A DNA stretch of 63,468 nt from Schmidtea nova. Lineage: Eukaryota. A model generated the notes under the pieces. That model did not search any database. It had not been told where the DNA came from and saw nothing but the letters and a program-made list of their open reading frames with translations. The DNA lies in the NCBI GenBank assembly GCA_044892505.1, contig CM097883.1:308822533-308886000 (forward strand), read 5' to 3'. Numbering within the stretch: the stretch's first letter is position 1; each line of letters starts with the position of its first letter. Below are positions 7,854 to 36,899 of this stretch, one piece after another. The position numbers and the translations under genes were made by a program.

Positions 7854-8355
7854 TTTGTAATTGCTGGGCAAATAATTTTCTCTGTCTTCGCCGTTTCTGC
7901 CCAATGCGCTTGCGTTTTTGGTGCGTATTCGCCGATGAGGTGGTTGAATTTGCTGCAGGAGCTGTCTCATTCCGACTTTCGATTAGATCTGCGACATCCG
8001 TGCCTATGGAATTCACAGTCTTCTTTTCTGATGTCCAAGCTTGGTACGTAACCGGACGGATTTGCTCTCTGAGCTCCTTCTCAATATATGAGGCAGTTAC
8101 GGAATGGAGGCATTTTCGGAGTTCTATCTTTGTAGCCTCCCATTCCATTTGATAATCGGCTGCCGTCTGTTGGGCGCGCTCGGTTTTACTGATTTGCTCC
8201 TTCATTCGGGCCGGAGCAAACCAGCTTTTGCGCAAGTATGCAATCTGTGCCTCTGCTTTGATCAATTGTGCCTTGAGGAGACCCACTTCCTTGTCCTGGG
8301 CCCTCCGAATCCGCCACATCTTCTCCAATTCTCTCTGCATCAAATCGGGGTTCAT
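7854..8355 (-). pseudogene. Truncated copy of LTR ORF-B
   Basis: Identical to 34861->34360, then runs into flanking MITE DNA (the track protein's CFLLVFINKIWLYIRQY tail is flank-derived). Confidence 0.8.
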
Positions 8356-8541
8356 TCTATAATTTATTTAGGATATTTACTCTATGATTTAATTATATGA
8401 AAATTAAAATCTGATCATAGGATTATTAGGTCACGAATATGAACTATTAAAAGGTGAAACAGAACAACAATAAAAAAAAAACAAAAATTCACTAATGAAC
8501 TATAATATTTTAATACAATTTCAACATTGGTTAATCAGTGT

Positions 8542-9021
8542 TCATCTCCGAAATAAACAATGCAATTCGCAGTTAATCGGTTTCTGACGCAGACGAGCCC
8601 AGGAAAACGCAGGTTGTCCTTTCCAGCATTCCTTGCCGAAGGGTTTTCGTGGCAGGAATTCGTGTAGGCCTAGTTGGCATAGTTCCCGACGAGGGATATG
8701 CCCCCAATAAATTACACGGCTTGTACGTCAATCTGTGTTCTTGATCAGTACGACAAGTCGGCCAAATTTGTTCGAGTACGGCCTTTGAGAAATCGGCCAG
8801 TTCGGTCCTCCTCGATAGAGTATTTGGTCGTGCCCTCCTGTCCATATCGAGAACGGGCATTTTCGGCCAAACCCCTGTCGCCACTTATACATTTGGCAGT
8901 TGAGGGTTCGCAATATTGATGCTGGTAGATCCTTGAGCTGCGAGATATTTCCATTTCGCAGATTCTCTCGCTCCATATTCCGTAGTTGCGTTAATTGATT
9001 TATAAGTTCAGCTGTCGACAT
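8542..9021 (-). pseudogene. 3' LTR copy of LTR ORF-A with a premature stop
   Basis: The 8730 SNP changes GGA to TGA after LIKNTD (97 aa vs 159 aa in the 5' LTR). Confidence 0.8.
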
Positions 9022-10393
9022 CTATATTACATTTATTGGATATGAAATATCTGAGAAAAGGGGGGAAAATTCGTTGATAATTTAATTATACTGTATATAA
9101 TCACAAAAGTTACTTAAAAATAAGATTAATTTTCTTTCTCTCCGCCGTGATCTACCACGGTCGGAATAAAGAGTTCATAATTAGTCCTGTGCTATATACA
9201 GCATTCAGGAATTTTCAAATTTAATCAAGATTTCCGCGCTATATACAGCGGTCGGATTATAACTTGGGAACCGCGCCATATACGACGATCGGCCTATTTT
9301 TAGTAACTAATTTAATTTGGATTTTCCGACGCATTCCATCGCGATCGGAATTTATCGATATTAAAATTTTGTAGGCGAGATGCTGATTTCGAATGAAATC
9401 GGACTTTGGACTACGTTGGATTTTCTCATTTCAGCGAAATTATTCAAATTTATTTTATTTGTTGCTCACTGCTTTTCCATGCGGGAGGTTCCATTTCGAT
9501 TCAATTTACTAAAATTTTAAGAGTGAGCATGCCCTACCATGGGGTGTCCCTCCTTATCAATCCGCCCTCCGCAATCTACATATTGGGCCCTCGACCTTCG
9601 TCCGTTGTGCAACCCAGAATTAAATAATTTGCAAATGGTCTGTACTAGACTAAAAATCCAATCAAATTTTCTAACTAAAATTTCACATCTAAGTTAAATA
9701 ATAAAAAGGTTGAACCGCCATGTGAGACCCTGAGGCCCCACGACGACGACTCGGACTCCCTCGCCGCGTGAGCAGCATAGGAAGTATAGCTATAATCAAT
9801 GAAAAAAATAAAATAACGTTTACATATAAACTTTTAATTAAATAAAAATCATGGGTACATCATATAAGATAACATAAAAAATTACTTCCGTACTTGAATG
9901 TGTGGTTCCTTGTATGAAATTCGGTTTTTCCAAAGAATTACTCAAATCAAAGTTTAGTCTTGATCTTGAGTGAAAAATAACGTCTAAGTCTGTGATTTTT
10001 GGATCGGTATTTATACTGATCCGTCTGGTTGGATTGACCAATCAGGATCAGGCCGTCCATCAAAGTATTTTTATTATTTTAATCTAATCTAAACATTATT
10101 TTGTTTCCTTTTCCGGTTTCTCGCTGGGTGGTCCTGATTTTCCAAGTAATTAATTAATTATTTGTACTATTATTTTATTTAATTCTATTTTTTCTCCTTT
10201 CAGGCCCCCTTTTGCGGTTGTTTACCGGTTTATTTTCAAAATTTCCTTTTACTGAAAATTTATCAATTATTATTTGTCGTTTTATTGTTATTTTTAATTT
10301 GTTTTTCTTGCTATTTTTATTTTTATTATTTCTTTATTGTTTCATGCTTTTGTTCGTTTTATTGTGTTTTTAGGTGATTTGGCGGGCCCAACA

Positions 10394-11166: not shown

Positions 11167-11241
11167 CTCTTTTATACATCGGTCAATACAGCTTGACACT
11201 TTTTATTTTACATAATTTATTTACACTTGGTTTCCGCACAT

Positions 11242-12416: not shown

Positions 12417-13793
12417 TTACGCCAACCATCCTTTTCTGTCTGTTTTCTCAGGCCTCTCCATCTCTATGTATAGCGTGTCTGCATATAGTCGCTCCCATAG
12501 GTTTTCTTGCCTTATAAACATTGGTTCTCCTGCTGCTAGTCCGCATTCTGTTGTTGGTTTTTCGCTCGTACTCGTATGTTTGTCTGTTTCAAAGAACTTT
12601 TCTACTGGTTTTCCCATACTTTTGATTCTTATAATGACTCCTACTTTCAAGGGCCATTCTATTAGGTCATCGTATTCTCCTTTACATAGTGAGAAGAATA
12701 TTGACACGTGTGTTCCTTGTCCTCTTCCGTCTCCATTTGGGTATACTTTCAATCTTATTTTAACCCCGTTTTTCCATAAATAAAATGGTGGGCTTATTAC
12801 TGCTGTTTTCGTCATATTTCTGGCTTCTGCTAATTTGTCTCTGAAATCAGTTACTTTCCATAGGTAAGGTGCGATTGGTAAGTCCCTTCTTTCGTCAATT
12901 TCTCGTATTAATTGATTATATTGTATTTTCATTCCTTTTCCTAATTCTTCTATGGCTATTATTTTCCTTTCCATTCTTTCGCGAGTTAGTTCAAACTGCT
13001 CTCTTGTTTCTAGTAGTAAACTCATCATTATTTTATGTGATTCTACTTCTTTTTCTAATTTCTGAATTGTCCGTTCCGTTTCTTTAGTCGTTTCGTTTGT
13101 CATTTCCACATGCGTTAGTGCTGCTTCTTCTAGGTGTTGTTTCATTGATTGCCGCGTCCGCTTTTCTTTGCATCCCTGTTTGTTATATGGGCATTCTCTT
13201 GGCCTTTCGGTACATAGTTTCCAATGTTCATGTAATTTTATTTCTTCTGTTATTTCACAATTGTTTGGACATTTACTTACATATTGTCCGCATACTTTCT
13301 CCTCTGTTATATTCAAGTGTTCTTCTTCGATTTTTCTCCTTGTTTCTCGGGCTTCACAATACTCGCATGCGATTTCTTCTTCTTTACATTCTTCCTTGTG
13401 TTGTTCTCTCTTCTTTAGAATTATTGTCTGTTGGCACTTCTCGCATTCGGTTCTTTTCTCCTCGCACTTTTCCATATGGTTTTCTAGATTACTTATTTGT
13501 CCTTGCCATGTACAAGGTGTATTTACGCACTCCGTTGTGGTGCTCATAATTTCTCTTTGGGTTGCTTTGTCCGTTCTGGTTTCGTCCAACGCTATTCCTC
13601 CTTCTTTACATTCTGGGCATGTTGTTATTCCTGTTACATCTAATTCTTGTATACATTTTGTACATATTCTACATCCACATATCGTTTGTCTGGGTTCTCG
13701 TAGTAAATTGTTACATTTTCCGCATGTGAGTCTCTTGCTCCATTTTCTGTTTTCTAGTCTCAAAATTTCGATTATTCGTTCTTCTCTGTCCAT
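12417..13793 (-). CDS. TRAF-family protein (RING, TRAF zinc fingers, coiled coil, MATH/TRAF-C domain)
   Basis: RING CGKCNNLLREPRQTICGCRICTKC...CPEC; zinc fingers CVNTPCTW...HMEKC and CPYNKQGC...H; MATH YLWKVTDF...SPPFY...LKVYPNGDGRGQGTHVSIFFSLCKGEYDDLIEWP (TRAF2/3/5-like). Confidence 0.93.
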   Translation of the reverse strand: MDREERIIEILRLENRKWSKRLTCGKCNNLLREPRQTICGCRICTKCIQELDVTGITTCPECKEGGIALDETRTDKATQREIMSTTTECVNTPCTWQGQISNLENHMEKCEEKRTECEKCQQTIILKKREQHKEECKEEEIACEYCEARETRRKIEEEHLNITEEKVCGQYVSKCPNNCEITEEIKLHEHWKLCTERPRECPYNKQGCKEKRTRQSMKQHLEEAALTHVEMTNETTKETERTIQKLEKEVESHKIMMSLLLETREQFELTRERMERKIIAIEELGKGMKIQYNQLIREIDERRDLPIAPYLWKVTDFRDKLAEARNMTKTAVISPPFYLWKNGVKIRLKVYPNGDGRGQGTHVSIFFSLCKGEYDDLIEWPLKVGVIIRIKSMGKPVEKFFETDKHTSTSEKPTTECGLAAGEPMFIRQENLWERLYADTLYIEMERPEKTDRKGWLA

Positions 13794-13885
13794 TTTCTAA
13801 AATAATATATACATTCGACTTGTCATTTATTTTTGGTTTTTCTTGTTTTTATTTTTACATATTTACAGTTTTCCGCTTTATTTAT

Positions 13886-14389: not shown

Positions 14390-17300
14390 CTATACCATCA
14401 TTATCGTCTTTTCCTCGTATCGTTCGTCATCTTCTATTTGTTTCCAGAATTCTTTACCTTTCGTTCTTCTTTGGAATTCTTTCTGTATCTCTTCTGGTAT
14501 TTCTATTCTTTGTTTCATAATTTTAATATCTGGCCATTGTATGGCTGTCGCTTTGTTTCTCTTTCTGTATCTCCAATATATTATCATGCTTGTCGTCATT
14601 ATCCCATATGCTATTAATATTCCTATGCTAATTAATCCTATTACTGTTTTTCCACGGTTTGTTTCTCCTTTATTCTGGTTCGCTTTTATCTCATTTTGGG
14701 TTTGAGCCTCTGGCTTCCTCTCTTTCTGTATTTGATTCTTGACTTTGTTCATTACTTCTTGTGTAGACCAATGGCGGTTTAGTAGTTGTTTGACGTTATT
14801 TTCTTTTGTTCGGTTTTCCACGTTTCCTGGTTCGATCTGTTGTTGTAGTTTCTCTGAGATCTGATATAATCCGCATTCTGGTTTTTCTGAACCTTTTCTG
14901 GTGAAGGTACATATCGCGTATGTCCTATTTACTTCCATTTTCTTTAATTCGACTTTTTCTTTATTCTTTATTTCTTTACAGTGGGTTAGGTTGTCTTCTT
15001 CCCCTTCTGGGTTATGCTTTGTCCAACATATTCCTTTAACTGTCTGATCGAGTCCTGTTAATGTCAGAGTTCTTTCTGTCTTTGTTAATTCTTCTTCATC
15101 GAATTTCAGTATCTCTCCTTTTTGGAATGTCTTGCAATGCTCTATTCCCTCTTGGATTCCTCTCTCCCAGATACATATACTTCCTTCTTCATTCATTTGT
15201 ATTTCTTGTATTTCGATTTCCTTGTTTGTTCGTGATTCGTCGCTTGTCTGAACTTGGTATTCCTTCCTTGGTTCGTTGTATGTTCCCCAGCATAGTTTGT
15301 TGCTACTTGTTTTCCTTATTGTTATGGCCATTTGTTCTATTATTATTCCTTTATCGATACGTTTGGACATTGCTAGTATTAATGCAATGCATACGCACTC
15401 CTGTTGGGGTGATATTCTTTCTCTCGTTTTATTGGTGCTCCTCTCCCCTTCTCTTGGTTTGTTCGTTGTATTTTCCTTCTGAGTTGCTGGTCGATCTATT
15501 GTGTTTTTGATCTCTTTCTTTGTTGGTTTTACTTTGTACCACTCAAGTCTAGGTGTTTCATATTTTTGGCATACGACTGTCTTAGGTAGCCCTGACTTCT
15601 TTTCCTTTCCTATTATACATATCCGATGCATGATTCCTCTGTCCATCCCTTCTATTCGTACTATATCCTGGTTGGATTTTCTGACTATACATTTTAGTGG
15701 GTTATCTTTCCCAATTGGTTCATCCTCTCTATTCCAGCATATTTTCTCGACCTCCTGGACATTTACTATTTTTATCCCTGCTTGTAGGTTTGTTGCTTCT
15801 TCCCTATTGATTAATGTTAGTATTATTGTTAGACCCAACCATTTTGAACTCTGCGGTAGGCTTCTGGTTCGCCTTTCATATTTTTTCTCTTCTCCTTTAA
15901 TCTCTTTTATTTCCTTGTCTTTGTTGTTTATTCCTAGTTTTCCGCTTTTTGCTTCTTTCTTTTTTGGTTCTTCTCGTGCTTCTTCTTCTAGCATTTCCAC
16001 TCCATGGCTTGTACTGTCTCTATTTGTCCATTGGGTTACCGATTTCTTTGGGTTTATCTTGCGTATCCATATAGCTGATAACGCGATTATTACTGGTATG
16101 GTCGCTGTTAATATTCCTAAGCCGATTAGTTCTTTAATTTCTTTATTCTCGTCTGTTTGTATAGGTTCGCTTTGGTTGAACATTATTCCGTATTGTCCCT
16201 TTAGTTTTCTCATTAATTGTTCTCGTTCCTCTTGCTTTCTTTTGACTTCTTTGATAACTTCTTCGGGTGTCCATTTTGCTTGAGGGTCGGTTATTGTTTT
16301 TTCTGCGTCCATTTGTTCATTCGTTTGGCTTAGTTCCCTGAATTCGAGTTTCCTTGTTATTCCTTTTGATGTTGCGTTTACTGGTGTATAGTAGGTTTCG
16401 CATCTTTCTTGTTGGTTTTCTAGTGCGTCCGTTTTTTCTATTGTACATACTTCGTACTCGCTATTAAATTGTAGTCTTTCGATCTTGATTTCTTTATTTG
16501 TTTTTCTGCACTCTCTTGATTGTCTTCTTATATATTTCTGGACTAGTATCCAACATATCTCCAATGTTTTATTCTCTATTTTCCATAATGTCAGAGTTGC
16601 TGATGTCTTTTTCTCGGATTTTGTCGTAACTTCTTGGCTTATCGGTTGTTTATTGTTTTTAAAGGTAGTGGTGTACTTCGGTTTCCCTTTGTTTCGTTGT
16701 CTTCTTTTATTTTTTCGTGTTAACGTTTTAGTTCTTGTTCCGGAGGAAGTGGTGTATATTCCGCATTCAAGATCGTTTATCGTTATCTGATCATTTTTCT
16801 TTACCAGACATATTTCGTAAGTTTGTTTACTTTCTAAACCTTTTATTTGTATCGTCGTTGCTCCTGTACTTGTTCGACATTGTGGTGTCTTTCTTTCATT
16901 CGTCTCTTTTTCGTACTTCCTCCAGCATACTCCTTTCACATTTGGTTCTATTTCTTTTATTTCTAATGTTATGTTTATTTTCCGCTTGATTTGTTTATTT
17001 CTCTTCCTCGTTCTCCTTCCGAACTTTATTACTTCTCCGGGTTGAAATGTTTTACATTTTGTGGTACCTTTCTTGTTTGTCTCTTTTTCTAATAGGCATA
17101 GTTTGTACATCTTATCTGCTTTTACTTCGGATACTTTAATTACTTTGTTTGTTGTTGGTTTTCGACTTTTCCTTATTTCATTTACGCCGATTTCCTCGTT
17201 ATTCCTCGCCCAACATTTTATGTTAGTATTCTGTGTATCTTCTACTTCTGTTATTGTCATAGTTTCAATTTCTATTCCTTCCTCTAATCGTTTTATTATT

Positions 17301-17473
17301 ATTAGTATGAGTGCTAAGCATAATACTTCCATTTGGTAAGACACTCTTTCGGTTTCGTTTGTGGCAACTCTTGCTTCGGGTCTTTTTATTGTAATTCGTA
17401 TAGTTGGTGTTGTTTGCTTATCTATTACCTGGGGTTTTTTGTTTTCTGTTCCCTGTGTCTCTGTATGCAACAT
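14390..17473 (-). CDS. 1027-aa membrane protein with six Cys-containing FN3-like repeats and two TM anchors; probable frameshifted continuation of the polyprotein
   Basis: Repeated motif CW-x(n)-I.I.GL...Y.IC-x13-15-C. TM segments LIGLGILTATIPVIIALSAIWI (about 16064-16135) and VIGLISIGILIAYGIMTTSMIIYW (about 14573-14645). Overlaps the end of the 4633-aa ORF. Confidence 0.8.
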   Translation of the reverse strand: MLHTETQGTENKKPQVIDKQTTPTIRITIKRPEARVATNETERVSYQMEVLCLALILIIIKRLEEGIEIETMTITEVEDTQNTNIKCWARNNEEIGVNEIRKSRKPTTNKVIKVSEVKADKMYKLCLLEKETNKKGTTKCKTFQPGEVIKFGRRTRKRNKQIKRKINITLEIKEIEPNVKGVCWRKYEKETNERKTPQCRTSTGATTIQIKGLESKQTYEICLVKKNDQITINDLECGIYTTSSGTRTKTLTRKNKRRQRNKGKPKYTTTFKNNKQPISQEVTTKSEKKTSATLTLWKIENKTLEICWILVQKYIRRQSRECRKTNKEIKIERLQFNSEYEVCTIEKTDALENQQERCETYYTPVNATSKGITRKLEFRELSQTNEQMDAEKTITDPQAKWTPEEVIKEVKRKQEEREQLMRKLKGQYGIMFNQSEPIQTDENKEIKELIGLGILTATIPVIIALSAIWIRKINPKKSVTQWTNRDSTSHGVEMLEEEAREEPKKKEAKSGKLGINNKDKEIKEIKGEEKKYERRTRSLPQSSKWLGLTIILTLINREEATNLQAGIKIVNVQEVEKICWNREDEPIGKDNPLKCIVRKSNQDIVRIEGMDRGIMHRICIIGKEKKSGLPKTVVCQKYETPRLEWYKVKPTKKEIKNTIDRPATQKENTTNKPREGERSTNKTRERISPQQECVCIALILAMSKRIDKGIIIEQMAITIRKTSSNKLCWGTYNEPRKEYQVQTSDESRTNKEIEIQEIQMNEEGSICIWERGIQEGIEHCKTFQKGEILKFDEEELTKTERTLTLTGLDQTVKGICWTKHNPEGEEDNLTHCKEIKNKEKVELKKMEVNRTYAICTFTRKGSEKPECGLYQISEKLQQQIEPGNVENRTKENNVKQLLNRHWSTQEVMNKVKNQIQKERKPEAQTQNEIKANQNKGETNRGKTVIGLISIGILIAYGIMTTSMIIYWRYRKRNKATAIQWPDIKIMKQRIEIPEEIQKEFQRRTKGKEFWKQIEDDERYEEKTIMMV

Positions 17474-20400
17474 GCAATTGTGTTGTGTGATCTTGGATGC
17501 TTTTGTTTTCTAACGGTGCATATTTTGTACCAGGTATTTAGATCTAGGTCGTTGATCTCTATGATCTCTTGCTCGTGTTTTGAGATTCTGCAATCCATCG
17601 GGCTATTTTGTTCCGTGATTTTGTCCTTTTTTGACCAACATACTCGTTCGATTCCTTTCGCGTTTTTTATTTGTATTATTGCCCTTTCTTCACATGTCAT
17701 TCCTTGACTTGGATTAATTAACGTTATAATCATTGTTAGTAATAGTAATTCGGGTTTGAAGAATGGTTTTATGGTTGATTTATAACCTGTTCTTTGGGTG
17801 TCATTTTTATCTCCTTGGACGTTTTTTCCTTGTTCTCCATCTTCATCTCTTTGTTTTTCGTCTTCACTTTTCTTTTCTTCCTTGTCTCGTTTCTTGTCTT
17901 TTCTCTCGTTTTCCTCTTTATCGGGTGGTTCGTGATCGTTTGAATTTTCTGAGTTGTTACCGTCGTCACTATCTGTATTGTCATCTCCCCCTGGCTCGTC
18001 GAAAATGTCGTCCTCGACATTGATTTCTTCTATCAATTTTGCATATGCTAATGTCGTTAGATTACTTGCCTCAAATTCTTGTGTTTCTACCTGCTCCGGT
18101 ATTACTTTGTTTGTGGATTTATATTCTAAGATTTCCTTTTTGGCCTTGATCCAATTGTTGATGTATGTCTTCATCAATTCTTTCCATTTGCCTGTGTATT
18201 TTTCTTCTTTCGGGCTGGTTGTGATTCTTAGATCCTTTCTTTCCATAAACATCTTCAATATCTCTGGCCATTTATACGTTATTAAGGCACTTCTTATACA
18301 CCAGTTTTGGTTATGTTCTGTAAACTTATTAATCCTGAATGCTGGTTCGTTAGTATTAGGATTTATCCACGTAAGTATTGATTCTGTTAGTTCGACGTTG
18401 TTCATCATTGCTAGTACACTGGGTTTCTTGACCGAATCAGTTAGGTGATCTATTTCTTCCTGATTTGGGACGGTTTTAATGAAATTGACCATTTCCCAAT
18501 TGTGTGTTAATAATGCTACATCCAATATCGAATTATCTTTATCTGTCTTTCCAGTAAGTCCTGCACCTGCTTTGTATAGTTCTTCTAATACCTTTGTTTT
18601 CGTTTTGGCCCTTGCTGCAAATACCATAAGTGTATCTCCTTTCTCGTCTATCATATTCATATTGCTTCCGCAATTTAGCATTACTCTTGCAATTTCCATT
18701 ACTTTCCTATCTTTGCCATTTCGTAGAGCTCTATGTATGGGCATTATTCCGTCTTTTGGTAATAGGAATGTTACTGGCATCTCCTTTTTTATTATTACTA
18801 TGTCGTTACCATTGTATGTTCCTTTTGCGTATGCGTGTACTTTTTCAACTAATGCGCCGAGTATTTCCAGTGCATGTTTACTATTCTCGAATTCCGGTAA
18901 CAATTCTTTTGCTTTTTCTTGTATCGCATCTAGTCTAGCTTGGTATGGTGCTTCTGCTTTGAAGAGTGGTGTGAGTTTCTTGTTACTTTCTCTTTCTTTT
19001 TTCTCTAAAACCTGTTTGCATTTTTCGGGATGGTTTAAGATTTTTACTAGCTCCTCATATTCGCTTACTATCGTCTGGTATTTCTCGTTAAAATTGTTTA
19101 TGTCTTTGTATGTTATTAGTTTATCAAGTGGTTTCGCACACCATTTCCTAATCTTATTGAATAAGGCTTCCTTCTCTTTATCGAATTTGTATTCTTCTTC
19201 ATTCTTTGTGATGTTTATGTTTCCTCTGTCTAATAAGGTTAGTAATGTCTTCTGATCACAAGTAAATTTCAAAAGGTATCTTAACAGTGCGTTTTGTCCT
19301 TCGCTGTATACTTCGTTTATGTCTAAGACCCATGTATCATCTTCTGGTCGTTTCCATTTGATTAACTTACGGATCGTGTTGCATTTACCAATTTTGATTG
19401 CCTCTTTGATAATGTCTCTTTTAACTAGTTCGTCTATTTCCCAAGTGCAGTTAGCTATTATGTATTTCAGCATTGGTTGGTGAGAACTCCATATTACGTG
19501 ATTTAGCACTGTTTTGTCTTCTCTATCTCGTTCTGTCCAACTGAAATGAGCTTTTATCAATAGATCTATCATTTCTTTATCTGCTTGGTGGATTGCGGCT
19601 GTCATTAATGGAGTTTCTTGTTCCCGATTCCCTATGTCCAAGTTTTGGTTTGTTTCTTTTGCGATTTTTAGGAATTCTTTTGCTCTTTCCATGTTTTTAC
19701 ACTCTATCGCATTATGTAAGGCTGGTTGTCCTCCTACATCTTTCAATAAGAGTATTTCAGGGATTTTTTCCAATAATTCAGAAATAATTGGTTCGGTTGG
19801 TAATCCTTGTGCGTAACGGCTAATTATATGTCTAATATCCCTTGATATGCCTGCTTCGTCTTTAACATGCCATCTTCCCATTATCTCTCTCGCCTTCAAT
19901 ATGATTTCTTTATTTCTGATTTCTTTTTGCCTTATTTCTTCTTTGTCGTCTTCAGTTGCATTAGCTCTGAGCATGTTTATCCTGGCTGTTTGTGATCTGG
20001 TTATTATTCGATTTTCTGGTGTTGTAGTTATCGTTTTAGGCACCTTCTTACATCTGCAAGTGTTTACATATATGGGTCGTATTAACGGTCGATTTATTAG
20101 CTTAACTTTGACATTATTGTCCTTTTTGTATATAATTTCATACGGTCCTCTTCCAGGTCTTTGGAGTTTCTTAACTGTTCCTGGTATTATTTCGGGAGTT
20201 TCTATTATCACCCAATCTCCTGGTTTTAGATCGTTCGCTTTAACATTTTTCTTCTGGTCGTGTAAGTCCTTATAACTTTCCTGATAAAATTTGATGTTGA
20301 GTTCTGCCGTTTTCCATATTTCCTGCATTCTTTCTTTGAATTTGGTTACATAGTCGTCGTCTTCCATGTATTGCGATAATGGTGGTTGATACTCTAAATC

Positions 20401-23400
20401 TATGGGCATGTTGCATTCTCTTCCATACATAAGTTGAAACGGGCTTAGTTTTGTTGCTGCATGTATCGACATTCGGTATGCCATTAAACATAATTTTATA
20501 TATTCGTCCCAATCAGTCTGATGTCTGCTGACGTAATTTGATAACATTCTGATCAATGTACCATTGAATCGCTCCGTTTGTCCATTCGTTTGCGGGTGAT
20601 ATGGTGAAGTTCTCAATTTTGCTATTCTGAAATAGTTTGTCACCTCGTTCAATAACTCACTCATGAAGTTAGTTCCTTGGTCTGTGAGTATTTGTTTTGG
20701 AGTTCCGTATCTGCAACATATTTCTTCTACCAAAATTTTTGCTACGGTTTTTGCTTTTTGGTCTTGCATGGCAAATGCTTCTGGGAATTTTGTCAGATAA
20801 TCCGTTATTACCAATATATAAATATTTCCGTTTAGACTTTCCGGTAATGGTCCTATTACGTCCATTGCTATAGTTGTCATTGGCTCTGCTGGTATCGGCA
20901 TTGGTTGTAGCGGGTTCTTCCATTTCTTCCCACTATCCTTTCTGGTTGCACAAGTTAGACAATTTTTAATCCATTCCTTTATATCTTCTTCCATTGTTCG
21001 CCAATAATATTTTTGTCTCATACGGTTTATTGTCTTTTTCTCGGACATATGACCTCCTAATTTCCCATCATGGTATTGGATCATTATCTCTTTCCTTCTG
21101 TTTTCCGGTAAACACATCAATCTCTTTTCTCCGTCTTGTATTAACAACCATCCTTTATTTATTATGTAGCGATGTTGATATTTTCCTATATGTTCCTTTA
21201 ATTCCTTATTATCCTTGAATGCCTCCATATTTCGAGACGTTAGGAACTCTATGATCTGTCCCAATTCTTTGTCTTCCTGTTGATCTTTCTTTAACTCACT
21301 AAAATCTAAATCCTCCGCTATTAATACACAAATTCGTTGTACATCAGGATCGGTTAGTTCCGGAAATGTCAGTCTTGACATACAATCTGCATTCGCATTC
21401 GCTTTTCCTGATTTAAATTTTATGTCTGGTGAGTACTCCTGTAACTGCATCGCCCATCGCATTAATCTACTGGATGTTTCCTTGTGCTGTCCTAACCATA
21501 CAAGCGGTTGGTGATCTGTTGTTATGCAGATGATGTGACCCCATAATAAATATTTAAAATGTTTTATTGCTAGTATAATCGCTAATGCTTCCCGTTCTGT
21601 CACTGAATAATTTTTCTCATGCTTTTTGAATGTCCGGCTATAATATCCGATTACCCGTTCCTTTCCTTCGTCGTCGTATTGTCCTAATACGGCTCCTGCT
21701 GCATATCCGCTTGCATCTGTTGCAAGTAGGAATGGCTTCTTGAAGTCTGGGTGTACCAATATAGGTGCGGTTATCAGTTTATCTCTCAACGTTTCAAAGG
21801 CTGTTTGCTGTTCATCTCCCCATATGAATGATACATCTTTCTTTACCAGCTCCTGTATAGGTTTTGCTATTCCGGCGTAATCTTTTATAAACTTTCTATA
21901 ATATCCACATAGTCCGAGAAATTCTTGTATTTGGATTATTGTTTTTGGTACTGGACATTCTTTTACCTTGTCGATGTTTCTAGGATCCGGTTCTTTTCCT
22001 TTTGCTGACACTATATGTCCTAAAAATGTTACTTTCTCTTTAGCCCAATCACATTTGGATGGCTTGAGTTTTAACTTCCATTGTCTAAGTCTAACGAATA
22101 CATCTCGAATATCTTGTATGTGTTGTTCGAATGTACTAGAATAAATTAATAAATCGTCGATGTAGACCATGCACTGCTTTATTCCATGGGTGACGAAATT
22201 CATGCATCTCTGAAATGATGCTGGTGCGTTCGTTAATCCAAATGGCATCTTTCGAAATTGATATAGGTCTCTACCGATGGTAAAGGCAGTTTTCTCTTTA
22301 TCCTCTTCCTTCATTTTTATTTGCCAATATCCGCTTTTCAGATCTAACGACGTAAAATATGCTGCTCCTTGTAATGTTAGTAGCATCTCGTTGATGTCTG
22401 GTAATGGGTAAGTATCTCGTTTTGTCACTGTATTCAATCTTCGGTAATCTATACAGAATCTCTGTGTTCCGTCTTTCTTCTTCACCATTACCACTGGAAA
22501 TTGCCAGGGTGAACAACTTGGTTCGATTACTTCTGCATCCAACATTTTCTTCACTTCCGCTTCTGCTACTGCTTTCTGTGCTTCCGCTAATTTGTACGGC
22601 CTTAATGCAATTGGTGTTTCATCTGTTAATGGTATTGTATGTAGTGTGACATCACATGTTCCTAGATCTAAATCGGATGCTGCAAATATATCCTTATACT
22701 CTATCAGGAGTTTTTCTAATTGCTTCTTTTGATCCTCATTTAATAATTCACTATCAATATTCCAGGTTGGCTCTTTATCTTTCTCTGCCCCTTCTATTGG
22801 TAGTTCGATATCCATCATTGGGGTTAGTTTGCCTAATCTTTCGTTTTCGTATATTATTTTGTCCTCTTCATCGAAGTTTACTACGTTTATTGGGATTTCT
22901 CCATCGTCATTTATGTTGACTAGTCCTCTTGCCATTGGCAATGCTTTTCTTTTCTCGAATCTTTTACTTGGTTCGAAAATCATATCACCTTGGATTGTCG
23001 GATCTATTTTTACGTAACATATTTTCTCCTTTCTTGCGGGTATGATCATTTGCTTTGAACTTGTCACTTTGGCTTCTATTGCGCATATTTGTCCGGTGCG
23101 ATCTTTTAGTCTCATTGTTCCGAGATCGATTACAATCTCTTTAAATAACGCTGGCATCAAATCTGTTCCGATAATGCAAGGCACGCTTAATGCTGGTATA
23201 ACTGCTACGTACGTATCGATTTCCGTGTTTAAGTGGCGTATTTTTACCCACCATCTTCCTGCTACTTCTACAACTTCTTTGCTACATGCAATTACGTGGA
23301 CGTTTGTCCTTTCTATTTCTCGTCTTTGCTCTTGTGGTATCCATTTGATGTCGATGGCGGAAATGTTTGCTCCCGTGTCGATCATTGCTTCGATTTCCCT

Positions 23401-26400
23401 TCCGTTAATCTCTATTGTCGTGGTTAGTACTGGACCTGTGTTTGATGACATTACTGCGATCGTGTGTGTATCTCCTTGTGGATCTACGCTTCTACATCTT
23501 CTCATTTTATAATCTTCCGGTATCATGGGGTATACATTTGTCATTGGCATCATTTGCATCGTGTTATTTTTTCCTCCTTGTAGTGGTTCTTGATACATTG
23601 TTGGTGGAGGTGCGTAACATTTCCATGCGTCGGCTGGATTCTTTTCGATGTATTGTGGTGCTTGGTTCTTATACACTTGTCCTCCCTTATAGTCGTCATC
23701 GTCATCATCGTCGTCACTCGAATCATTTTGGGTTTTATATCCTTTCATCCTTTCCCATAAACCTTTTCTTTCTTTCTTGAGCTGTTGTCTTGCTTGTTCG
23801 TCATTCCTTATCTTTTTAAATTTTCGTCCTACTTCTTCATCTGTTCCCTTCATTTTTGCTAATATCTTTAGGAGTCTTTTTATTCGGTGGATATCTTTTG
23901 AGTGGCCGTGTAACACCATCGTTTTCGCAAGGAATGGTAAAAACCCTACTACCATTTTCCAATTCACTTTCTTTTCTCTCTTGTAAATATCGAAACATGC
24001 TAACATTTGCGTTATTATCACTCTGACGATTTGGATTATTAGTATGACCCCCAGTATTCCGGCCATCATTTGTCCGAATATCAGAAATCTTCCCCACATT
24101 GCTTTCATCATGTTTTCTGTGGCTTTTTTGAAATGTGCTGGTGACAACAATAGTTCATAATTCGGTCTTTCTCGATAATCCGTTCCTCCCGTTATCGTTA
24201 CGATATTTGACAGTAATGCTTCTCTTCTCGCTGGAAATAATATATTCTGCCTTGCTGCTTCTAAATCCTTTGGACTATATATTCCGTTGTTTGAGACATC
24301 TACGTCGCTGAATTGCCTATCCTTTGACAACTGCATTAGCTCGAATTCTCTTGGTGCTATCACTTCGGATCTTCCTGGGAACATAACCCATTTACCATCT
24401 GGTTTCTGATAAAGCGGTCCATACGCATTACTACAGTTGAATGGATTTGGTTCAAACCCTGGTGGATTGATGATTCTCGTCACCGGTTGAACGTATCGTA
24501 CTTTTCCTTTGTAATCGATTTCTAACTCATTTGTACAGGTTCCAGGTTTCAACTGTGTTGTTGCTGCTAGTGACGCGTGTGTCTTTTCGCAAATGTATAC
24601 ATACATTGCTTCTCCAACCACTCTTCCGAAATGTCCTTCTCTCAGTGGTAATAATGGCATCGCGCTATCTGGATTCGTAATCGCTACCGCCAACTTTGTC
24701 TTTAATATTTCTCGATTCAGTATACAATCATTGTTTATCAGATTGTAGTATACTTTTTGTAATGAGGCTTGTCCTCTATGGAATAGGAAATCCATTTTAT
24801 TATTCACATATAGGTGTAGTTTGATATCCATTGTGTCGATTTTGGGTTTCGCATTTGGCACTTCTTGTTTTGACACATATATTCCTGGATAATTCGTTTC
24901 GTATACCGTTGTACTACACTTAAGGGTTGCTTTCCCTTTTATGAATCTCATTCCCACATCTTGATTTGTGGTTATCAATACTGTTGGTGTGGCTCTCATC
25001 TCTATTCGTTTTTCTCTATGATCTGGTTTCAGTTGTCTTTTATTCTCTAAAGCTTCCTTGAGATGCTTTGCTCTATCTTTGTCGTCATCGTCTTCTTCCT
25101 GGAACGTTTTTCCTTGGATTTCGTCGAACTTTGCTCCTTGTAGCAGTTGTAATTGGCATTCGTTCACCTTTGGTTTGTATACTAATGTTGACATTCCCGT
25201 TTGACACATGCTCCTGTCGATTTTACACATGGATAACGTTTTCATTTCTCCCGTTGTTGGTTCGAAGAATGCTTCGTAGCTTTTCAGTTCGACTATATAC
25301 GTATCCATCACCACTAAGTTGGTTGCGGGTACTCCGAATATCGGGTAGGTTTCTCCTTGACAATATCCTTCTCCTCCCGTAATCCGTCCTGCTACATAGT
25401 ACGTCTGTTGCATCATCATTCCTGGCTTTCCTCTTATCTTGATTTTATCTCTTGTTGTTACTTCTCCATGTTTAAACAGTGCTTCGCAGTCTTCTCCTTG
25501 TAACACGATTGGTTCTCTTTCCGTTCCTGGCATGACAATTGCTGAATAGTGTCCTCTCCCGCAGTAGAATGCGAATCTCGTCTTCTGCACCTTACATTCA
25601 TTCACCATTGTCTTTATGAGTTCTGCTTCTTGATACACGTGGTACCATTGTTCCTTTTTAATCTTTTGCAACTCTACTGGAGTTGCATCTTTGCATTGCT
25701 CCGTACCTCTTAATGAATACTTTTCTCCTAACTTCATTTGGTCGCAATCAAATACTTTGAATGCTGTTGCGCTATCGGTGCTAATCATCCATATCAACAT
25801 CATCATTATTATAGAACTCAGATTCATTGATGACTTTGCGTTTCCTGTTCCTGTTTGTTCTTTTTCTAACTCTTCCAATATTTTTTCGAATTTCTTTTTC
25901 ATATTCTTGGCTTGTGTTTTCTTCTGGTTAGTTTTTATAAATGTTTCCCATCCTCCTTTGTTAATGACGTAAGGTTCTATTTCTCTAGCTATAATCTTTG
26001 CGGTGTTTTTTATATGTCTCTCTAATGCAGTGGGTTTTGGTCGACCTCTACTCAATGTCAACAGATTGTAGATCGTGTATGCAATGGCTATTACGTATTT
26101 GTTATCAGTTTCCGCTCCTTCTGTCAATTTCTTTATTAACGTAGTGGTTCCTTGCCAGTCTAAATGATTTGACTTCGTCTTTTCTTTTATGAATTCCGGT
26201 AAGATGGGTGCGATTGCGCTGTGTAATGACTTTGCCTTTTCGCTTATCTCAGTTAAGCGCCAGTATTTTCTCAATTCCGGATCAATTATTGCCAATATCT
26301 CCATTATCGTTTTCGATATCCATTCCTCCCCTTGACATATTGGTGTTGTCTCTTTTTCTTTCATCTCCGCAATTTTATTTAATTTCCTTAAACATAATTC

Positions 26401-29400
26401 CCATTGATCTTGTCTCTTTTCGTCTTTATTTCTTACAACTACAGTTGCTGGGTCTGTCTTAGGTCTACCTCTAGGTCGTTTATCCATTCCTGTACCTGTT
26501 TCCACAAACCTTGTTGCTCGTCCGGTTTCTTCGGTGACATCTCTTGGTTCGTTAGCTCTTTCTTCTAACCATCTTTCCATTTCTTGTGTTAATTGTACAT
26601 TTTCGACATTCGCTCCTCTTGTTTCGTCTTCTGTTAGATCGTTTACTTCTTCTATTATTATTTCTTCTTCGACTTCTGCTTCTCCGGTGTTGGTTACTTG
26701 TATTGTCGTAGGTAGTTCTTGTATTCTTTCGAAAATGTTATCGTCCTTTTCCCTTGTTAATTCGGTTAACTCTTCTATCATATCGTCGCTATCCGTTAAA
26801 ATTTCGTCCACGTCGTATGGTTGTGGTGGAGTCCTTTCTCTGGTTCCTCTGGGTGTTGTCTCAGATCGTCTTGAACTTGTCCCTGGTGTTAGTACTGATT
26901 TCATCGGGCTTGGCGTACTTATACTTCCGTGTGGTTTATGGTTTTCTTCTTTACGTTTCAATGGTTGACCCGCTATTGCTTCTACTGTCAAGGTATTCAT
27001 GAGGTCTAATTGTGCTGGCGTTATTCCGATTTCCAAACTGTTATCTAATGATCGTCCTTGGTGTTGTAAATGGAATGGTGGTTCGTATCTCAATTTCTTT
27101 TTAATATCTCGAATTTTTTCTGCTATTCCTACCCACAACTCTTCCTTATCCTTGTTTGGGTATATTATTCTTAAATGTACTTTCTGTGGAATTTCCTGCG
27201 AGAATTCTTGATTTCTCCATTTCCTAATTACGTGGTCTAGTTGTTCCGGACACCACTCGTTAACTCTTTTATATTCCGCGATTGCTTTTGCTACTTTACG
27301 CAAGCATGTTATATCTTCCCCATTTACCACGAAAAAATCTGCGAGACCCTTTATTACTTTTCTCTTACCGTGCGCATTAGTTTTTAATATTTCGACAAAT
27401 TCTTCCGTTTTTTGCTTTTCCCTTTCTAACCACATGGCCGCTGTTTCTGGTCCATCTAGGTCTATTGGCGTAGCTTTCCTTGTTACCATGCAAACTCTTC
27501 CTATCTCTGGTTCGCAGTCATCTTCAATTCCTCTTTTATATTCTTCTTCATATTCCCCTTCTTTTGGTTCCCAACATTTTCCTTTCTCGTTCCATTGTTT
27601 TTCTCCGGGTGTTCGTATTCGTCGGTTGAGATTGAGTTCTTCTAATACATTTTCCCATTCCGGCCGAATTCGCCAATTTCGATAGATGTCTATTATTTGT
27701 TGTAATTTGCGCACAACTTCTTTCCGTCGTTCCCGTTCTCTTTTCTCATCTTTAGCAGTTTCCCTTGGTGTATCGTCCATTCTGCTAACGTGGATTGTTT
27801 GGTGATTATCCCATATACCGATTTTATATAATCGTCTCTCATCGTGATCCCATAATACATGTTCGTTGTATTGTATGATTATGTCGTCTTCCCATTCGTC
27901 TTCTGGTTCTCTTTGCACTAGTGTCTCGTTGATGACATTTATTAATTCCTTAATGGTGCAATCCGCTACCACTTCGATTTCTTTGGTGTCCTCATTAGGT
28001 AATTCTACCGAAATCTTTAGATCTGTTATTTTCCCTTGTCTAAACATTGTTTTTCCCATTTTTGCGATTAATTTGTCGTGTGAGATCTGTGACCATCTCG
28101 TGTGGCTTGTGTCACGTATGCACTCAATACATCGTTTCAATTTCTCGTATTCGCTTCTCATTAATTCTTTTCTATGTTTTTTGACTTGTGGTATGATTTG
28201 TTCTATCAGGGAATTTAGATTCTTTCGTAAGACTCGTTCTTTCTCGTATTCTAACCGAGGTTTTATTCTCTTTTCGAAGCACGTGTTTGCTTCTCTTGCA
28301 ACTTCTTGTAGGTTCTCTTCTTCCTTTTCATCACATATTGATAACAGAGTTATTTCTCCTGGCCATATACCTGTTTCCACTAAGTGCGTTCTTTTCTTTA
28401 CGAGTCTATTCTGCGAATAGATGAATTTGTTTTTATATGAGCTCCCTAGTCTATCCTCTACCCATCTGTAGATATCGTCTGTAAATGGAGTTTTGATCCA
28501 GATTCTTGGTGTAGATGTATTTATTATTATTGAGATGGTGTAATTGAGGAGTGGTTCCTCTATTAATTTCCCTACGTATCGATTCAACATGTCTACTTCC
28601 CGGTCTTGTAACCATTCTTTGTAGTTCATTTGTAATAATGCTTTCATGAATTTCCGATATTGTTTCTTGTCCATGAACTCTTCGTTATATATTACTTCTA
28701 GCGAGTTATCTAGTAATTTCTGGATTTCATCTACTTTTATCTGTGTAGGTTCTGAGGTCTTTATTACTTCTCTCTCTTTATTTTCATCTTCGGATTCGTT
28801 TAATATGTCTCCTGCTAGGCTACTGATATCACTATCTTCTTCTTCATCGGAAAACTCTCTGGTGGTATTTCTTAGCATATTAATATGTGCTATTTGGTTC
28901 GTTTCTCCTTGTATATTCTCCGTTGGTTCTGGTTCGTTTTTGTCAATTTCTGGTGTTGGTTCACTCTTGTCCTCTATTACTTCGACTTTTCCCATTTTCT
29001 TTCCCAACTCGTCTATCTCTTTTAAACGTCTTCTTATCATTTTTCCTTCAAATATTCGCCGGATTCGGGTTTCGTGACGTATTGGTGGTGGAATTTCTTC
29101 TGGTTTTATTTCTTTAATTCTCATCACATTTCTTTTTGTCTCTGTTACTCCCACGTTTTCCCATGTATCTGTTAATTTTAATTTTACTGATGGTGCATCT
29201 CCTATTTGTAAGAACGCTTCTCTGGGCAGTTTTGTCACTCCTGGAATCATCTGGTTTACTTTATTGAACAGTATTTCCACCTTTTCTTTTGCGTTATATT
29301 GGAATCGAAACATATGGTCGTTGGGCATGATTACCATCATTCCTTTTTTCCAAATTTTTCTTCTCTCTTCTTGGTTTATCTCAGTTTCCTCTCCCTTTTC

Positions 29401-31326: not shown

Positions 31327-31936
31327 GGGGATTACTTTTGTATACTCAATTTTCCTGTTCTATCTCTTATCGTTTTCTGATTCTTCTTGCTTGATTGATT
31401 GATTTGATTGATTTGTATATCTAAAATACAAAGGTCCTCAACGATACATTATTGTTATCGTCGCGCTTTTATTCCCTTTCTTTCGGGATTACTTATTACT
31501 GGGTTTTCATTATTTCCCAATTCCCAGATTCCCCTTTATTTTTAGTCTATTTAAATTATCTATAGACTGGTCACAATTATCTATTTACGTCGTAATAATT
31601 ATCTATGTTTTATCAAATCGATTACTTTTCCCACAGTTTCCCAATTATTGGTCGCTCGAGCGCTCTAATTCCCTGAGTCTTTCTGACTCGTTTATCATTA
31701 TTTTATCATTTCTATTCATTATTCCCTGCTAGCAATCGTTTTACTCATTCTGCCGGTGGCTCCGGTCAGCTCAAATCTCTACTATTCTCCTTGCATGCTT
31801 TACTTAAGGTTGCATAATCAGCTTTACTCGCATTCTCTTAACTACTAGTGCGCACTACTCTAAATTTCGTCGACGATTATACTATGGGTCTATATTCCCT
31901 CTGTTACTATTTATCCGGATATCTCTATAATTCACT

Positions 31937-32191
31937 ATGGCTCTTCTGGCCTCAATTTTATATCTCACATGGCTCTATTGGCCTCATTTTACTATCTCAA
32001 ATGGCTCTATTGGCCTCAATTTAATCTCTCAAATGGCTCTATTGGCCTCAATTTAATCTCTCAAATGGCTCTATTGGCCTCAATTTAATCTCTCAAATGG
32101 CTCTATTGGCCTCAATTTAATCTCTCCAATGGCTCTATTGGCCTTAATTTAATCTCTCAAATGGCTCTCTTGGCCTCAATTTAATCTCTCC
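31937..32191. repeat. Tandem array, 8 x 32 bp
   Basis: Unit atggctctattggcctcaatttaatctctcaa starts at 31937, 31969, 32001, 32033, 32065, 32097, 32129 and 32161. Confidence 0.95.
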
Positions 32192-32232
32192 ATAACGCCT
32201 AGCTAGGTCATTCAATAAGGCTCATTGGCCTC

Positions 32233-32527
32233 AACCCTTTTTTTCAAGGGACAAACCGCTAATAACCCTTTGTTTCAAGGGACAAATCTCATAACCCTTT
32301 GTTTCAAGGGACAAATCTCCTAACCCTTTGTTTCAAGGGACAAATCTCCTAACCCTTTGTTTCAAGGGACAAATCTCCTAACCCTTTGTTTCAAGGGACA
32401 AATCTCCTAACCCTTTGTTTCAAGGGACAAATCTCATAACCCTTTGTTTCAAGGGACAAATCTCATAACCCTTTGTTTCAAGGGACAAATCTCCTAACCC
32501 TTTGTTTCAAGGGACAAATCTCCTAAC
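32233..32527. repeat. Tandem array, about 10 x 29 bp
   Basis: Unit taaccctttgtttcaagggacaaatctc(c/a) with period 29 from 32263 to 32523, plus a variant first unit at 32233. Confidence 0.95.
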
Positions 32528-33003
32528 TTTGCTTAACCGGTTAATTATAATTCTTAACTTCGCTAGCGATTAATATTTCTCAGCTGAGTTATAACTACTT
32601 CTATGCGAGCTGACTATGCACCTTTTATTATTTCAACACTATCGTTTATTTCTTTGTTCTATTATAACTATTTCCTGATCCGTCTGCTTCAACTTTTTAT
32701 TTATTTTTCTCTATGCGCGCTTTACTCCATCAAGATTTCCCTATTTCTCTCCCCAACCAAAATATACAAAAAGATCGCGTTGGTCCATTAATGCAGGATG
32801 TGGTGATCAATCACATCACAAAAACTTTCCAACATTTGCGATGGGCCCCTTTCTATACACCCTGACTAGGTTGATCAATCGGTACTTCCCAATGGATTCT
32901 TATCGGACTACTTTGCAGTAGCTCAAAAATTATTTATATATGACAATTGTACCCATGATTTCCCCATTAATAAATCCATAAAATTCCATTCAAATTTTAT
33001 TTA

Positions 33004-34264: not shown

Positions 34265-34861
34265 TTAATTTTTAATTAGTTCGGTAAAAACTCCCGCCGG
34301 AGGAAAAATCTCCGTCAATAATGCCTCCCCGGTCATCTGATGTAGACCATCGACTTGGATTTGTAATTGCTGGGCAAATAATTTTCTCTGTCTTCGCCGT
34401 TTCTGCCCAATGCGCTTGCGTTTTTGGTGCGTATTCGCCGATGAGGTGGTTGAATTTGCTGCAGGAGCTGTCTCATTCCGACTTTCGATTAGATCTGCGA
34501 CATCCGTGCCTATGGAATTCACAGTCTTCTTTTCTGATGTCCAAGCTTGGTACGTAACCGGACGGATTTGCTCTCTGAGCTCCTTCTCAATATATGAGGC
34601 AGTTACGGAATGGAGGCATTTTCGGAGTTCTATCTTTGTAGCCTCCCATTCCATTTGATAATCGGCTGCCGTCTGTTGGGCGCGCTCGGTTTTACTGATT
34701 TGCTCCTTCATTCGGGCCGGAGCAAACCAGCTTTTGCGCAAGTATGCAATCTGTGCCTCTGCTTTGATCAATTGTGCCTTGAGGAGACCCACTTCCTTGT
34801 CCTGGGCCCTCCGAATCCGCCACATCTTCTCCAATTCTCTCTGCATCAAATCGGGGTTCAT
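34265..34861 (-). CDS. LTR ORF-B, 198 aa, coiled coil plus basic NLS-like patch
   Basis: Intact ORF containing KRKRIGQKRRRQRK; tatAG one nt before the ATG. Confidence 0.65.
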   Translation of the reverse strand: MNPDLMQRELEKMWRIRRAQDKEVGLLKAQLIKAEAQIAYLRKSWFAPARMKEQISKTERAQQTAADYQMEWEATKIELRKCLHSVTASYIEKELREQIRPVTYQAWTSEKKTVNSIGTDVADLIESRNETAPAANSTTSSANTHQKRKRIGQKRRRQRKLFAQQLQIQVDGLHQMTGEALLTEIFPPAGVFTELIKN

Positions 34862-35047
34862 TCTATAATTTATTTAGGATATTTACTCTATGATTTAATT
34901 ATATGAAAATTAAAATCTGATCATAGGATTATTAGGTCACGAATATGAACTATTAAAAGGTGAAACAGAACAACAATAAAAAAAAAACAAAAATTCACTA
35001 ATGAACTATAATATTTTAATACAATTTCAACATTGGTTAATCAGTGT

Positions 35048-35527
35048 TCATCTCCGAAATAAACAATGCAATTCGCAGTTAATCGGTTTCTGACGCAGAC
35101 GAGCCCAGGAAAACGCAGGTTGTCCTTTCCAGCATTCCTTGCCGAAGGGTTTTCGTGGCAGGAATTCGTGTAGGCCTAGTTGGCATAGTTCCCGACGAGG
35201 GATATGCCCCCAATAAATTACACGGCTTGTACGTCCATCTGTGTTCTTGATCAGTACGACAAGTCGGCCAAATTTGTTCGAGTACGGCCTTTGAGAAATC
35301 GGCCAGTTCGGTCCTCCTCGATAGAGTATTTGGTCGTGCCCTCCTGTCCATATCGAGAACGGGCATTTTCGGCCAAACCCCTGTCGCCACTTATACATTT
35401 GGCAGTTGAGGGTTCGCAATATTGATGCTGGTAGATCCTTGAGCTGCGAGATATTTCCATTTCGCAGATTCTCTCGCTCCATATTCCGTAGTTGCGTTAA
35501 TTGATTTATAAGTTCAGCTGTCGACAT
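35048..35527 (-). CDS. LTR ORF-A, 159 aa, unknown function
   Basis: Intact ORF in a GC-richer island of the LTR; tatAG immediately before the ATG. Confidence 0.6.
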   Translation of the reverse strand: MSTAELINQLTQLRNMERENLRNGNISQLKDLPASILRTLNCQMYKWRQGFGRKCPFSIWTGGHDQILYRGGPNWPISQRPYSNKFGRLVVLIKNTDGRTSRVIYWGHIPRRELCQLGLHEFLPRKPFGKECWKGQPAFSWARLRQKPINCELHCLFRR

Positions 35528-36899
35528 CTATATTACATTTATTGGATATGAAATATCTGAGAAAAGGGGGGAAAATTCGTTGATAATTTAATTATACTGT
35601 ATATAATCACAAAAGTTACTTAAAAATAAGATTAATTTTCTTTCTCTCCGCCGTGATCTACCACGGTCGGAATAAAGAGTTCATAATTAGTCCTGTGCTA
35701 TATACAGCATTCAGGAATTTTCAAATTTAATCAAGATTTCCGCGCTATATACAGCGGTCGGATTATAACTTGGGAACCGCGCCATATACGACGATCGGCC
35801 TATTTTTAGTAACTAATTTAATTTGGATTTTCCGACGCATTCCATCGCGATCGGAATTTATCGATATTAAAATTTTGTAGGCGAGATGCTGATTTCGAAT
35901 GAAATCGGACTTTGGACTACGTTGGATTTTCTCATTTCAGCGAAATTATTCAAATTTATTTTATTTGTTGCTCACTGCTTTTCCATGCGGGAGGTTCCAT
36001 TTCGATTCAATTTACTAAAATTTTAAGAGTGAGCATGCCCTACCATGGGGTGTCCCTCCTTATCAATCCGCCCTCCGCAATCTACATATTGGGCCCTCGA
36101 CCTTCGTCCGTTGTGCAACCCAGAATTAAATAATTTGCAAATGGTCTGTACTAGACTAAAAATCCAATCAAATTTTCTAACTAAAATTTCACATCTAAGT
36201 TAAATAATAAAAAGGTTGAACCGCCATGTGAGACCCTGAGGCCCCACGACGACGACTCGGACTCCCTCGCCGCGTGAGCAGCATAGGAAGTATAGCTATA
36301 ATCAATGAAAAAAATAAAATAACGTTTACATATAAACTTTTAATTAAATAAAAATCATGGGTACATCATATAAGATAACATAAAAAATTACTTCCGTACT
36401 TGAATGTGTGGTTCCTTGTATGAAATTCGGTTTTTCCAAAGAATTACTCAAATCAAAGTTTAGTCTTGATCTTGAGTGAAAAATAACGTCTAAGTCTGTG
36501 ATTTTTGGATCGGTATTTATACTGATCCGTCTGGTTGGATTGACCAATCAGGATCAGGCCGTCCATCAAAGTATTTTTATTATTTTAATCTAATCTAAAC
36601 ATTATTTTGTTTCCTTTTCCGGTTTCTCGCTGGGTGGTCCTGATTTTCCAAGTAATTAATTAATTATTTGTACTATTATTTTATTTAATTCTATTTTTTC
36701 TCCTTTCAGGCCCCCTTTTGCGGTTGTTTACCGGTTTATTTTCAAAATTTCCTTTTACTGAAAATTTATCAATTATTATTTGTCGTTTTATTGTTATTTT
36801 TAATTTGTTTTTCTTGCTATTTTTATTTTTATTATTTCTTTATTGTTTCATGCTTTTGTTCGTTTTATTGTGTTTTTAGGTGATTTGGCGGGCCCAACA

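Follow-up and report, generated by a model that had tools for sequence, protein, structure and literature searches.

In Schmidtea nova, a Burro-type Ty3/gypsy element encodes a Bcl-2-like domain ahead of a hydrophobic segment that, on the sequence evidence, is most likely the internal signal peptide of its own Env protein. With a probability of about 0.72, this signal inserts the chain carrying the Bcl-2-like cargo into the ER, the chain is cut after SATA and the domain stays attached to the membrane, at least for a short time, facing the cytosol. In the pathway that we propose, the ribosome would make Gag and the Bcl-2 domain in the cytosol until the segment directs the chain to the ER during translation, where signal peptidase would cut after SATA and Env would enter the lumen. 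The Env transmembrane region would stop the transfer and leave Pol back in the cytosol, with further internal signals acting downstream. The topology would thus alternate as in flaviviruses, with Gag and the Bcl-2 domain cytosolic, Env luminal and Pol cytosolic. The Bcl-2 domain would be left hanging from the segment at the ER surface, from where it may damp host cell death or stress signalling during Env synthesis.

The window, the whole stretch of 63,468 nucleotides that was analysed, contains the element on its minus strand between 7854 and 36899 (about 29 kb, Table 1). The two LTRs differ by 1 mismatch over their length, and no target-site duplication was evident at 7837-7853 and 36900-36915 with the LTR ends as we placed them. 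One open frame holds Gag and, after an intervening stretch, the Bcl-2-like domain, the segment, Env, its transmembrane region, Pol and the ankyrin region, in that order. The Pfam domains of Pol follow the gypsy-type order PR-RT-RH-IN, within a giant LTR element of roughly 30 kb. The 5' leader, which runs from the LTR to gag, contains two tandem arrays (31905-32585) with periods of 32 nt and 29 nt.

Table 1. Features of the element, in window coordinates.
Feature	Position (nt)	Strand	Basis or remark
5' LTR	34360..36899	(-)	2,540 bp
Polyprotein ORF, 4,644 aa	17425..31359	(-)	reads 31359->17425
Gag CCHC knuckles	29914-30066	(-)	Pfam; in polyprotein ORF
GRPK motif, presumably AT-hook-like; positional landmark	26458..26481	(-)	also in some relatives without Bcl-2
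Extra helix upstream of the Bcl-2 bundle, loose BH3-like LxxIA motif	26353..26415	(-)	model residues H2-22
Bcl-2-like domain, aa 1675-1813, full helical bundle predicted	25921..26337	(-)	AF2, VIA, profile score
Degenerate BH1, TDNK instead of NWGR; basic residue at Arg position	26077..26112	(-)	alignment columns
BH2 motif ending in GGWETF	25939..25977	(-)	motif search, alignment
Charged helical linker, least conserved part	25822..25920	(-)	comparison with sister subfamily
Internal Env signal sequence, predicted cleavage after SATA; candidate tether	25762..25821	(-)	hydrophobic core 25780-25812
Env ectodomain, chuvirus-like / gB-type fusion glycoprotein	24100..25761	(-)	PF24664 E 1.1e-69, 14 Cys
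Env transmembrane region, predicted stop-transfer	23983..24099	(-)	hydropathy
PR	23149-23421	(-)	Pfam; in polyprotein ORF
RT	22009-22485	(-)	Pfam; in polyprotein ORF
RNase H	21433-21822	(-)	Pfam; in polyprotein ORF
IN	20539-21108	(-)	Pfam; in polyprotein ORF
Ankyrin region	19450-19719	(-)	Pfam; in polyprotein ORF
Second internal signal-like segment, after ankyrin region; FN3-like repeat next	17701..17757	(-)	hydropathy
1,039-aa ORF, signal-like and TM segments	14390..17509	(-)	overlaps polyprotein ORF end
Accessory TRAF-like ORF: RING-like, zf-TRAF, MATH; intronless	12417..13796	(-)	Pfam
3' LTR	7854..10393	(-)	2,540 bp

By its gene order and cargo, the element is a Burro-type giant Ty3/gypsy, compared here with the named Burro1-4 by description. 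The planarian Burro/GYPSM1 elements were described by Jurka 2007 and Grohme 2018, as summarised in PMC6431247. According to the section of PMC6431247 on Burro, these elements carry a BCL2-like motif with Env in frame between BCL2 and PR, and are suggested to meddle with host apoptosis. The window element resembles them in its length of about 29 kb with LTRs, in a giant ORF1 with Gag and two CCHC knuckles, in the BCL2-like motif and in the in-frame Env between BCL2 and PR, which is related to mononegavirus glycoproteins; ankyrin repeats, MATH/TRAF cargo, tandem repeats and a high copy number are also shared (PMC6431247). It differs in that TRAF is encoded by a separate ORF downstream of Pol, and in that no Pfam match to BIR or dUTPase was obtained among the ORFs scanned. 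The BCL2-like domain and the gene order are already published for Burro elements in this section, which does not discuss the signal segment, the topology or an anchor role. The passages of PMC8532177 and PMC11410931 that mention Burro do not deal with the Bcl-2/Env junction. The gene order and the Env class are also those of the GAG-ENV-POL errantiviruses with a HSV/gB-type Env in Platyhelminthes, Nematoda and Bryozoa, whose ectodomains are bounded by a signal peptide or a TM (PMC13524379). In the supplement to PMC13524379, one row labelled S. mediterranea looks, by eye, like the beginning of Env in family L053/L063 from the genome that we searched (G000). Neither 'Bcl' nor 'Burro' appears in the main text of PMC13524379, and 'Bcl' is also absent from the supplements searched. 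A shared anchor and signal segment was not found in the literature searched, which left out the texts of Grohme 2018 and Lee 2026. New here are the predicted structural support for a complete Bcl-2 fold, the conserved predicted cleavage site, the evidence that the segment is Env's own and the exchange of the Env cassette between subfamilies.

A 254-aa query across the Bcl-2/Env junction matched 149 copies in G000 at 91-100% identity; these were scored among 2,350 candidates, so that the element has at least 149 copies. By our own count, the queried junction stretch contained a stop in 12/149 copies and was free of stops in the other 137. Since open frames of some 5,685 aa are present in several copies, the window copy appears to be frameshifted near 17430-17510. 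The 1,039-aa ORF, which overlaps the end of the polyprotein ORF at 17425-17509, is likely the continuation of the polyprotein, broken by the frameshift in this copy.

The initial annotation had placed a Bcl-2-like domain at 25760..26322, with GGWETF followed about 35 aa later by IIMMMLIWMIS and then by SATA/F. All three motifs are present in the one open frame 31359->17425 of the minus strand: GGWETF corresponds to aa 1802-1807 and starts at nt 25956, IIMMMLIWMIS to aa 1850-1860 (nt 25812-25780), and the Phe codon of SATA/F starts at nt 25761. The gap between GGWETF and the hydrophobic run is 42 aa, and the proposed range contains the motifs but not the whole domain, which is predicted to begin near nt 26337, slightly outside. 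The G-W of BH2 was invariant in 17/17 alignment rows. When the ORF was shuffled 20,000 times, GGWxxF arose in 78 cases and a longer BH2 pattern in none (0/20,000); both patterns had been written after the motif had been seen. BH1 was located from the alignment columns and by aligning a family profile with Bcl-xL. The BH1 Gly was absent in all 16 rows with letters at this position, which makes canonical BH3 binding doubtful; a basic residue was found at the Arg position in 13 of the 16. The LxxIA-like motif of the upstream helix, its BH3 likeness being judged by eye, is also present in rows L103, L085, L087 and L099. This helix lies outside the range aligned to Bcl-2 structures and could occupy the domain's own groove.

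The window's own domain gave no match to Pfam Bcl-2 (PF00452), and phmmer against Bcl-xL reached only E 1.3. The assignment to Bcl-2 therefore rests on the relatives and the predicted fold. Against a profile from which its own family had been left out, the domain scored 49 bits, and leave-one-family-out scores were 41-91 bits for 13/13 positive sequences. A 10-row profile, in which no row was chosen by Pfam Bcl-2 and phmmer matches showing the motif were picked by eye, matched Bcl-xL and BAX with E 1.2e-5, and all 60 rows shown belonged to the Bcl-2 family. At E<=1, Pfam Bcl-2 matched 13 of the 17 aligned rows, and copies of sister families exceeded the curated cut-off. The PF00452 search of G000 recovered host genes, including BOK-like ones and others of the Bcl-2 family, as well as further element families; some of these matches exceeded the curated cut-off. 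In each of the element families, the domain was followed by a hydrophobic segment and then Env. An Env-profile search of G000 added further families with the same junction. When phmmer was run over 1.84 billion representatives, 15 matches were obtained; six of these proteins had a weak Pfam Bcl-2 match ahead of Env, and one more was a fragment with such a match. Word-based homologue searches yielded at most 1 sequence, which was already known, the ESM Atlas gave no usable match, and 0 of 100 pattern matches in IMG/VR were confirmed. For the BAK-like genes of the host, no BH3 exon turned up in a search reaching about 20 kb. Short, divergent Bcl-2-like genes of host type (L028, L032, L040, L046 and L049) form a multi-copy set with a QW/DW variant of BH2, and some of them contain stops.

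The fold prediction that the initial annotation had suggested as a check yielded a full Bcl-2 bundle. AF2 was run on the 17-row alignment, in which five rows descend from the Pfam search, and reached a pLDDT of 70 and a pTM of 0.65. From the single sequence the pLDDT was 45, and the fold search on that model was uninformative. Foldseek listed 48 rows, all of the Bcl-2 family with a probability of 0.98-1.00, with a best E of only 0.013 and none under 0.001; four of the five top viral rows were named viral Bcl-2 proteins. In VIA, ranks 1-36 were all Bcl-2-fold proteins and unrelated rows started at Z 5.0. The best match was Bfl-1 (Z 11.9, rmsd 2.8 Å, 136/150 residues), where a Z under about 13 may be generic for helical proteins with this aligner; the aligned part, model residues 28-166, corresponds to aa 1675-1813. 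We conclude that the domain belongs to the Bcl-2 family by homology through its relatives and by its predicted, complete fold; the identity proposed for it stands on these grounds, but not on a Pfam match of its own or on an NWGR in BH1. With the family (PF00452; Bfl-1/A1, Bcl-xL) and with the viral KsBcl-2, A179L, BHRF1 and BALF1, it shares the predicted bundle, BH2 and a hydrophobic segment behind BH2. In the Bcl-2 family this C-terminal segment is a post-translational tail anchor, whereas here it is a predicted co-translational ER signal and the domain is embedded in a polyprotein.

The tether could be transient, with an element protease cutting the linker or signal peptide peptidase removing the segment, and the soluble protein could then act on innate or NF-kB-type signalling, not on apoptosis, like the poxviral A46, A52, B14 and N1. 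These poxviral folds were among the VIA matches at Z 6.0-6.9, but cellular and BH3-binding viral Bcl-2 proteins scored clearly higher (Z 10-12). A degenerate BH1 would suit such a soluble protein, as would the TRAF-like and ankyrin cargo of the element and a linker that is exposed and variable (45% aa identity and pN 0.35 against the sister subfamily); a protease site was not identified. We regard both a transient tether with a soluble signalling role and, as slightly the likelier of the two, a BH3-type anti-apoptotic action as less likely than not.

The domain is being maintained by purifying selection, since the pN of its core, in the comparison with the sister subfamily, was 0.16 against a saturated pS of 0.82. 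At least six families in G000 retain the domain. That the domain is a decaying relic without current function could be argued from its absence in six relatives and from a window family too diverged to match Pfam. The selection data disfavour this, together with the retention in these families and the 137 stop-free copies, and we consider a relic very remote.

The hydrophobic segment is internal in the polyprotein (KD19 1.45). It shows a basic n-region, a hydrophobic core of about 11 residues, a polar c-region and small residues at -3/-1, and the core was identical in 20/20 copies examined. The AxA-type cleavage site proposed at SATA/F was borne out as a prediction: a (-3,-1) site was found at this position in 20/22 sequences, compared with 13% of ectodomain positions, by a loose rule of our own and not by SignalP, and the rule also applied at offset 0 in 14/22 and at offset 6 in 12/22. 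The equivalent site lies three residues before a conserved [YF]DC motif. As had been proposed, the predicted Env ectodomain begins behind SATA/F, with PF24664 matching in two stretches (E 1e-69). Among the relatives, the profile match begins inside the segment, at profile positions 4-8 in most matches and at position 5 in the sister families. The call of a signal peptide is well supported by these computations. If the segment were instead an uncleaved signal-anchor, the Bcl-2 domain, and perhaps Gag too, would stay joined to Env as one membrane protein, and some gB-type errantivirus ectodomains are described in PMC13524379 as flanked by two transmembrane domains. The conservation of the small-residue site, the short core and the polar c-region behind it argue against this arrangement, which we hold to be improbable.

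A separate start or splice for Env was considered and is disfavoured, because no upstream Met before the core was common to all families among the 8 sequences checked, with L085 having none at all, and because a strong splice acceptor within 170 codons was found in 0/8. In four runs of unknown kind with fragmentary contigs, 0/9 listed joints had minus-strand splice ends, which weighs neither way.

The segment was also kept in six relatives without the Bcl-2 domain (P0016, P0006, P0007, P0013, P0014 and L102), all scoring <=2 bits for the domain; P0005 is a cluster mate of P0016. The absence is not a truncation because P0007, P0014 and L102 include a Gag knuckle-type region upstream. L102 (440-8518) has the bare arrangement, a compact Gag-signal-Env-Pol in one frame without the domain. 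P0016 and P0007 have several retropepsin-like domains per polyprotein, with up to 7 Pfam stretches in P0016. The alignments A1, A3 and A4 omit the phmmer matches P0005-7 and P0010-14, which were judged by eye to be without the domain; P0012 looked unrelated and P0011 had no match to the junction pattern. The core is no more hydrophobic with the Bcl-2 domain (KD11 2.1-3.4, n=14) than without it (2.5-3.7, n=6). These comparisons suggest that the segment came with Env, independently of Bcl-2. Since the segment is Env's signal, is kept without Bcl-2 and is no less hydrophobic there, its service as an anchor is likely a side effect of processing in the manner of flaviviruses. P0016 and P0006 grouped with the Bcl-2-bearing L100 (support 94/96 for Env and 93/93 for RT), and their AT-hook-to-Env distance was 98-118 aa compared with 215-239 aa. 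However, a single Bcl-2-bearing clade was not rejected by the AU test (p 0.062), so that the trees do not decide between loss and late gain of the domain.

The window was also compared with related subfamilies along the element. Its identity to L103 was 65-76% upstream, 90-97% across Env and 67-78% after Env, whereas to L106 it was 86-93% upstream and 68-81% across Env. Against L103, L104 and L106, the nucleotide identity shifts sharply at the predicted mature Env start and reverts after the TM region (23900-25761). We conclude from these profiles that the Env cassette was swapped between subfamilies, with one breakpoint at the predicted cleavage site. Against L103 and L106 alike, the identity changes where the signal segment ends, and the segment stays on the Bcl-2 side. 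This suggests a coupling of the two and is one point in its favour, but the breakpoint may merely mark where the onset of similarity permits crossover.

Given the proposed topology, cleavage would leave the segment C-terminal to the Bcl-2 domain. The arrangement that the initial annotation had put forward follows almost automatically, because the domain would still be attached to the segment after the cut. A lasting, selected anchor does not follow: signal peptide peptidase often removes short signal segments, the mature flavivirus capsid is cut off its anchor, and a site for releasing the domain from Gag was not identified. In the flavivirus capsid and the HCV core protein, the C-terminal hydrophobic segment of a cytosolic protein is the signal for the next, luminal glycoprotein, and in this topology the parallel that had been drawn to the flavivirus capsid anchor holds. 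It does not extend to the mature protein, since release from the anchor is the rule in flaviviruses and HCV, which also speaks for a transient tether. There is no homology to these proteins, and here the segment follows a captured host-derived fold.

In a true dual use, the segment would persist as a stable anchor that the domain needs to block apoptosis, holding the BH3 helices of BOK-like or BAK-like killers. The complete and selected predicted fold, the basic residue in BH1, the segment remaining with the Bcl-2 side in both Env exchanges and the BOK-like and other Bcl-2 genes of the host are in line with this, and a functional study of the IAP cargo of Burro1 is reported to have found protection of stem cells (PMC13465017, citing Lee 2026). 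The loss of NWGR, the short core and its unchanged hydrophobicity next to the domain count against it; moreover, the linker from BH2 to the core spans 31-58 aa across the relatives, compared with about 22 aa in one host Bcl-2-family gene. We put this reading forward tentatively and lean against it; a stable, functional anchor for the domain is quite possible but short of probable. To judge from the sequence comparisons, a dual role of the segment is plausible and probably secondary to its role as the Env signal. If the tether is stable and functional, a retroelement would couple envelope production economically to the control of cell death, and would have a second anti-death arm beside the Burro1 IAP cargo reported from planarian stem cells. 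We further speculate, with rather low expectation, that Burro polyproteins in general are processed like those of flaviviruses by host signal peptidase at several signals, each Env leaving behind one ER-anchored death inhibitor with a BOK-like protein as a possible target. Such an inhibitor would be made one-for-one with Env, of all the proteins the likeliest to cause ER stress.

Internal signals appear to be a general device of the polyprotein, because a second, homologous signal-like segment follows the ankyrin region. This segment and its repeat are homologous to the segment and repeat of the 1,039-aa ORF (E 9e-16), where the match to FN3 is weak (Pfam E 0.011). After Pol and the ankyrin region, 14390-17757 is made up of repeated units of a signal-like segment, an FN3-like repeat and a TM. 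They are predicted to encode small surface proteins, for which they are candidates only. Two more accessory ORFs are present at 10597-12330, one of 362 aa that is coiled-coil-like and one of 201 aa with a signal-like start and one TM. Elsewhere in the window, a small second gypsy element lies on the plus strand at 43050-48077 with its gag-pol in frameshifted pieces, and served as the outgroup for RT.
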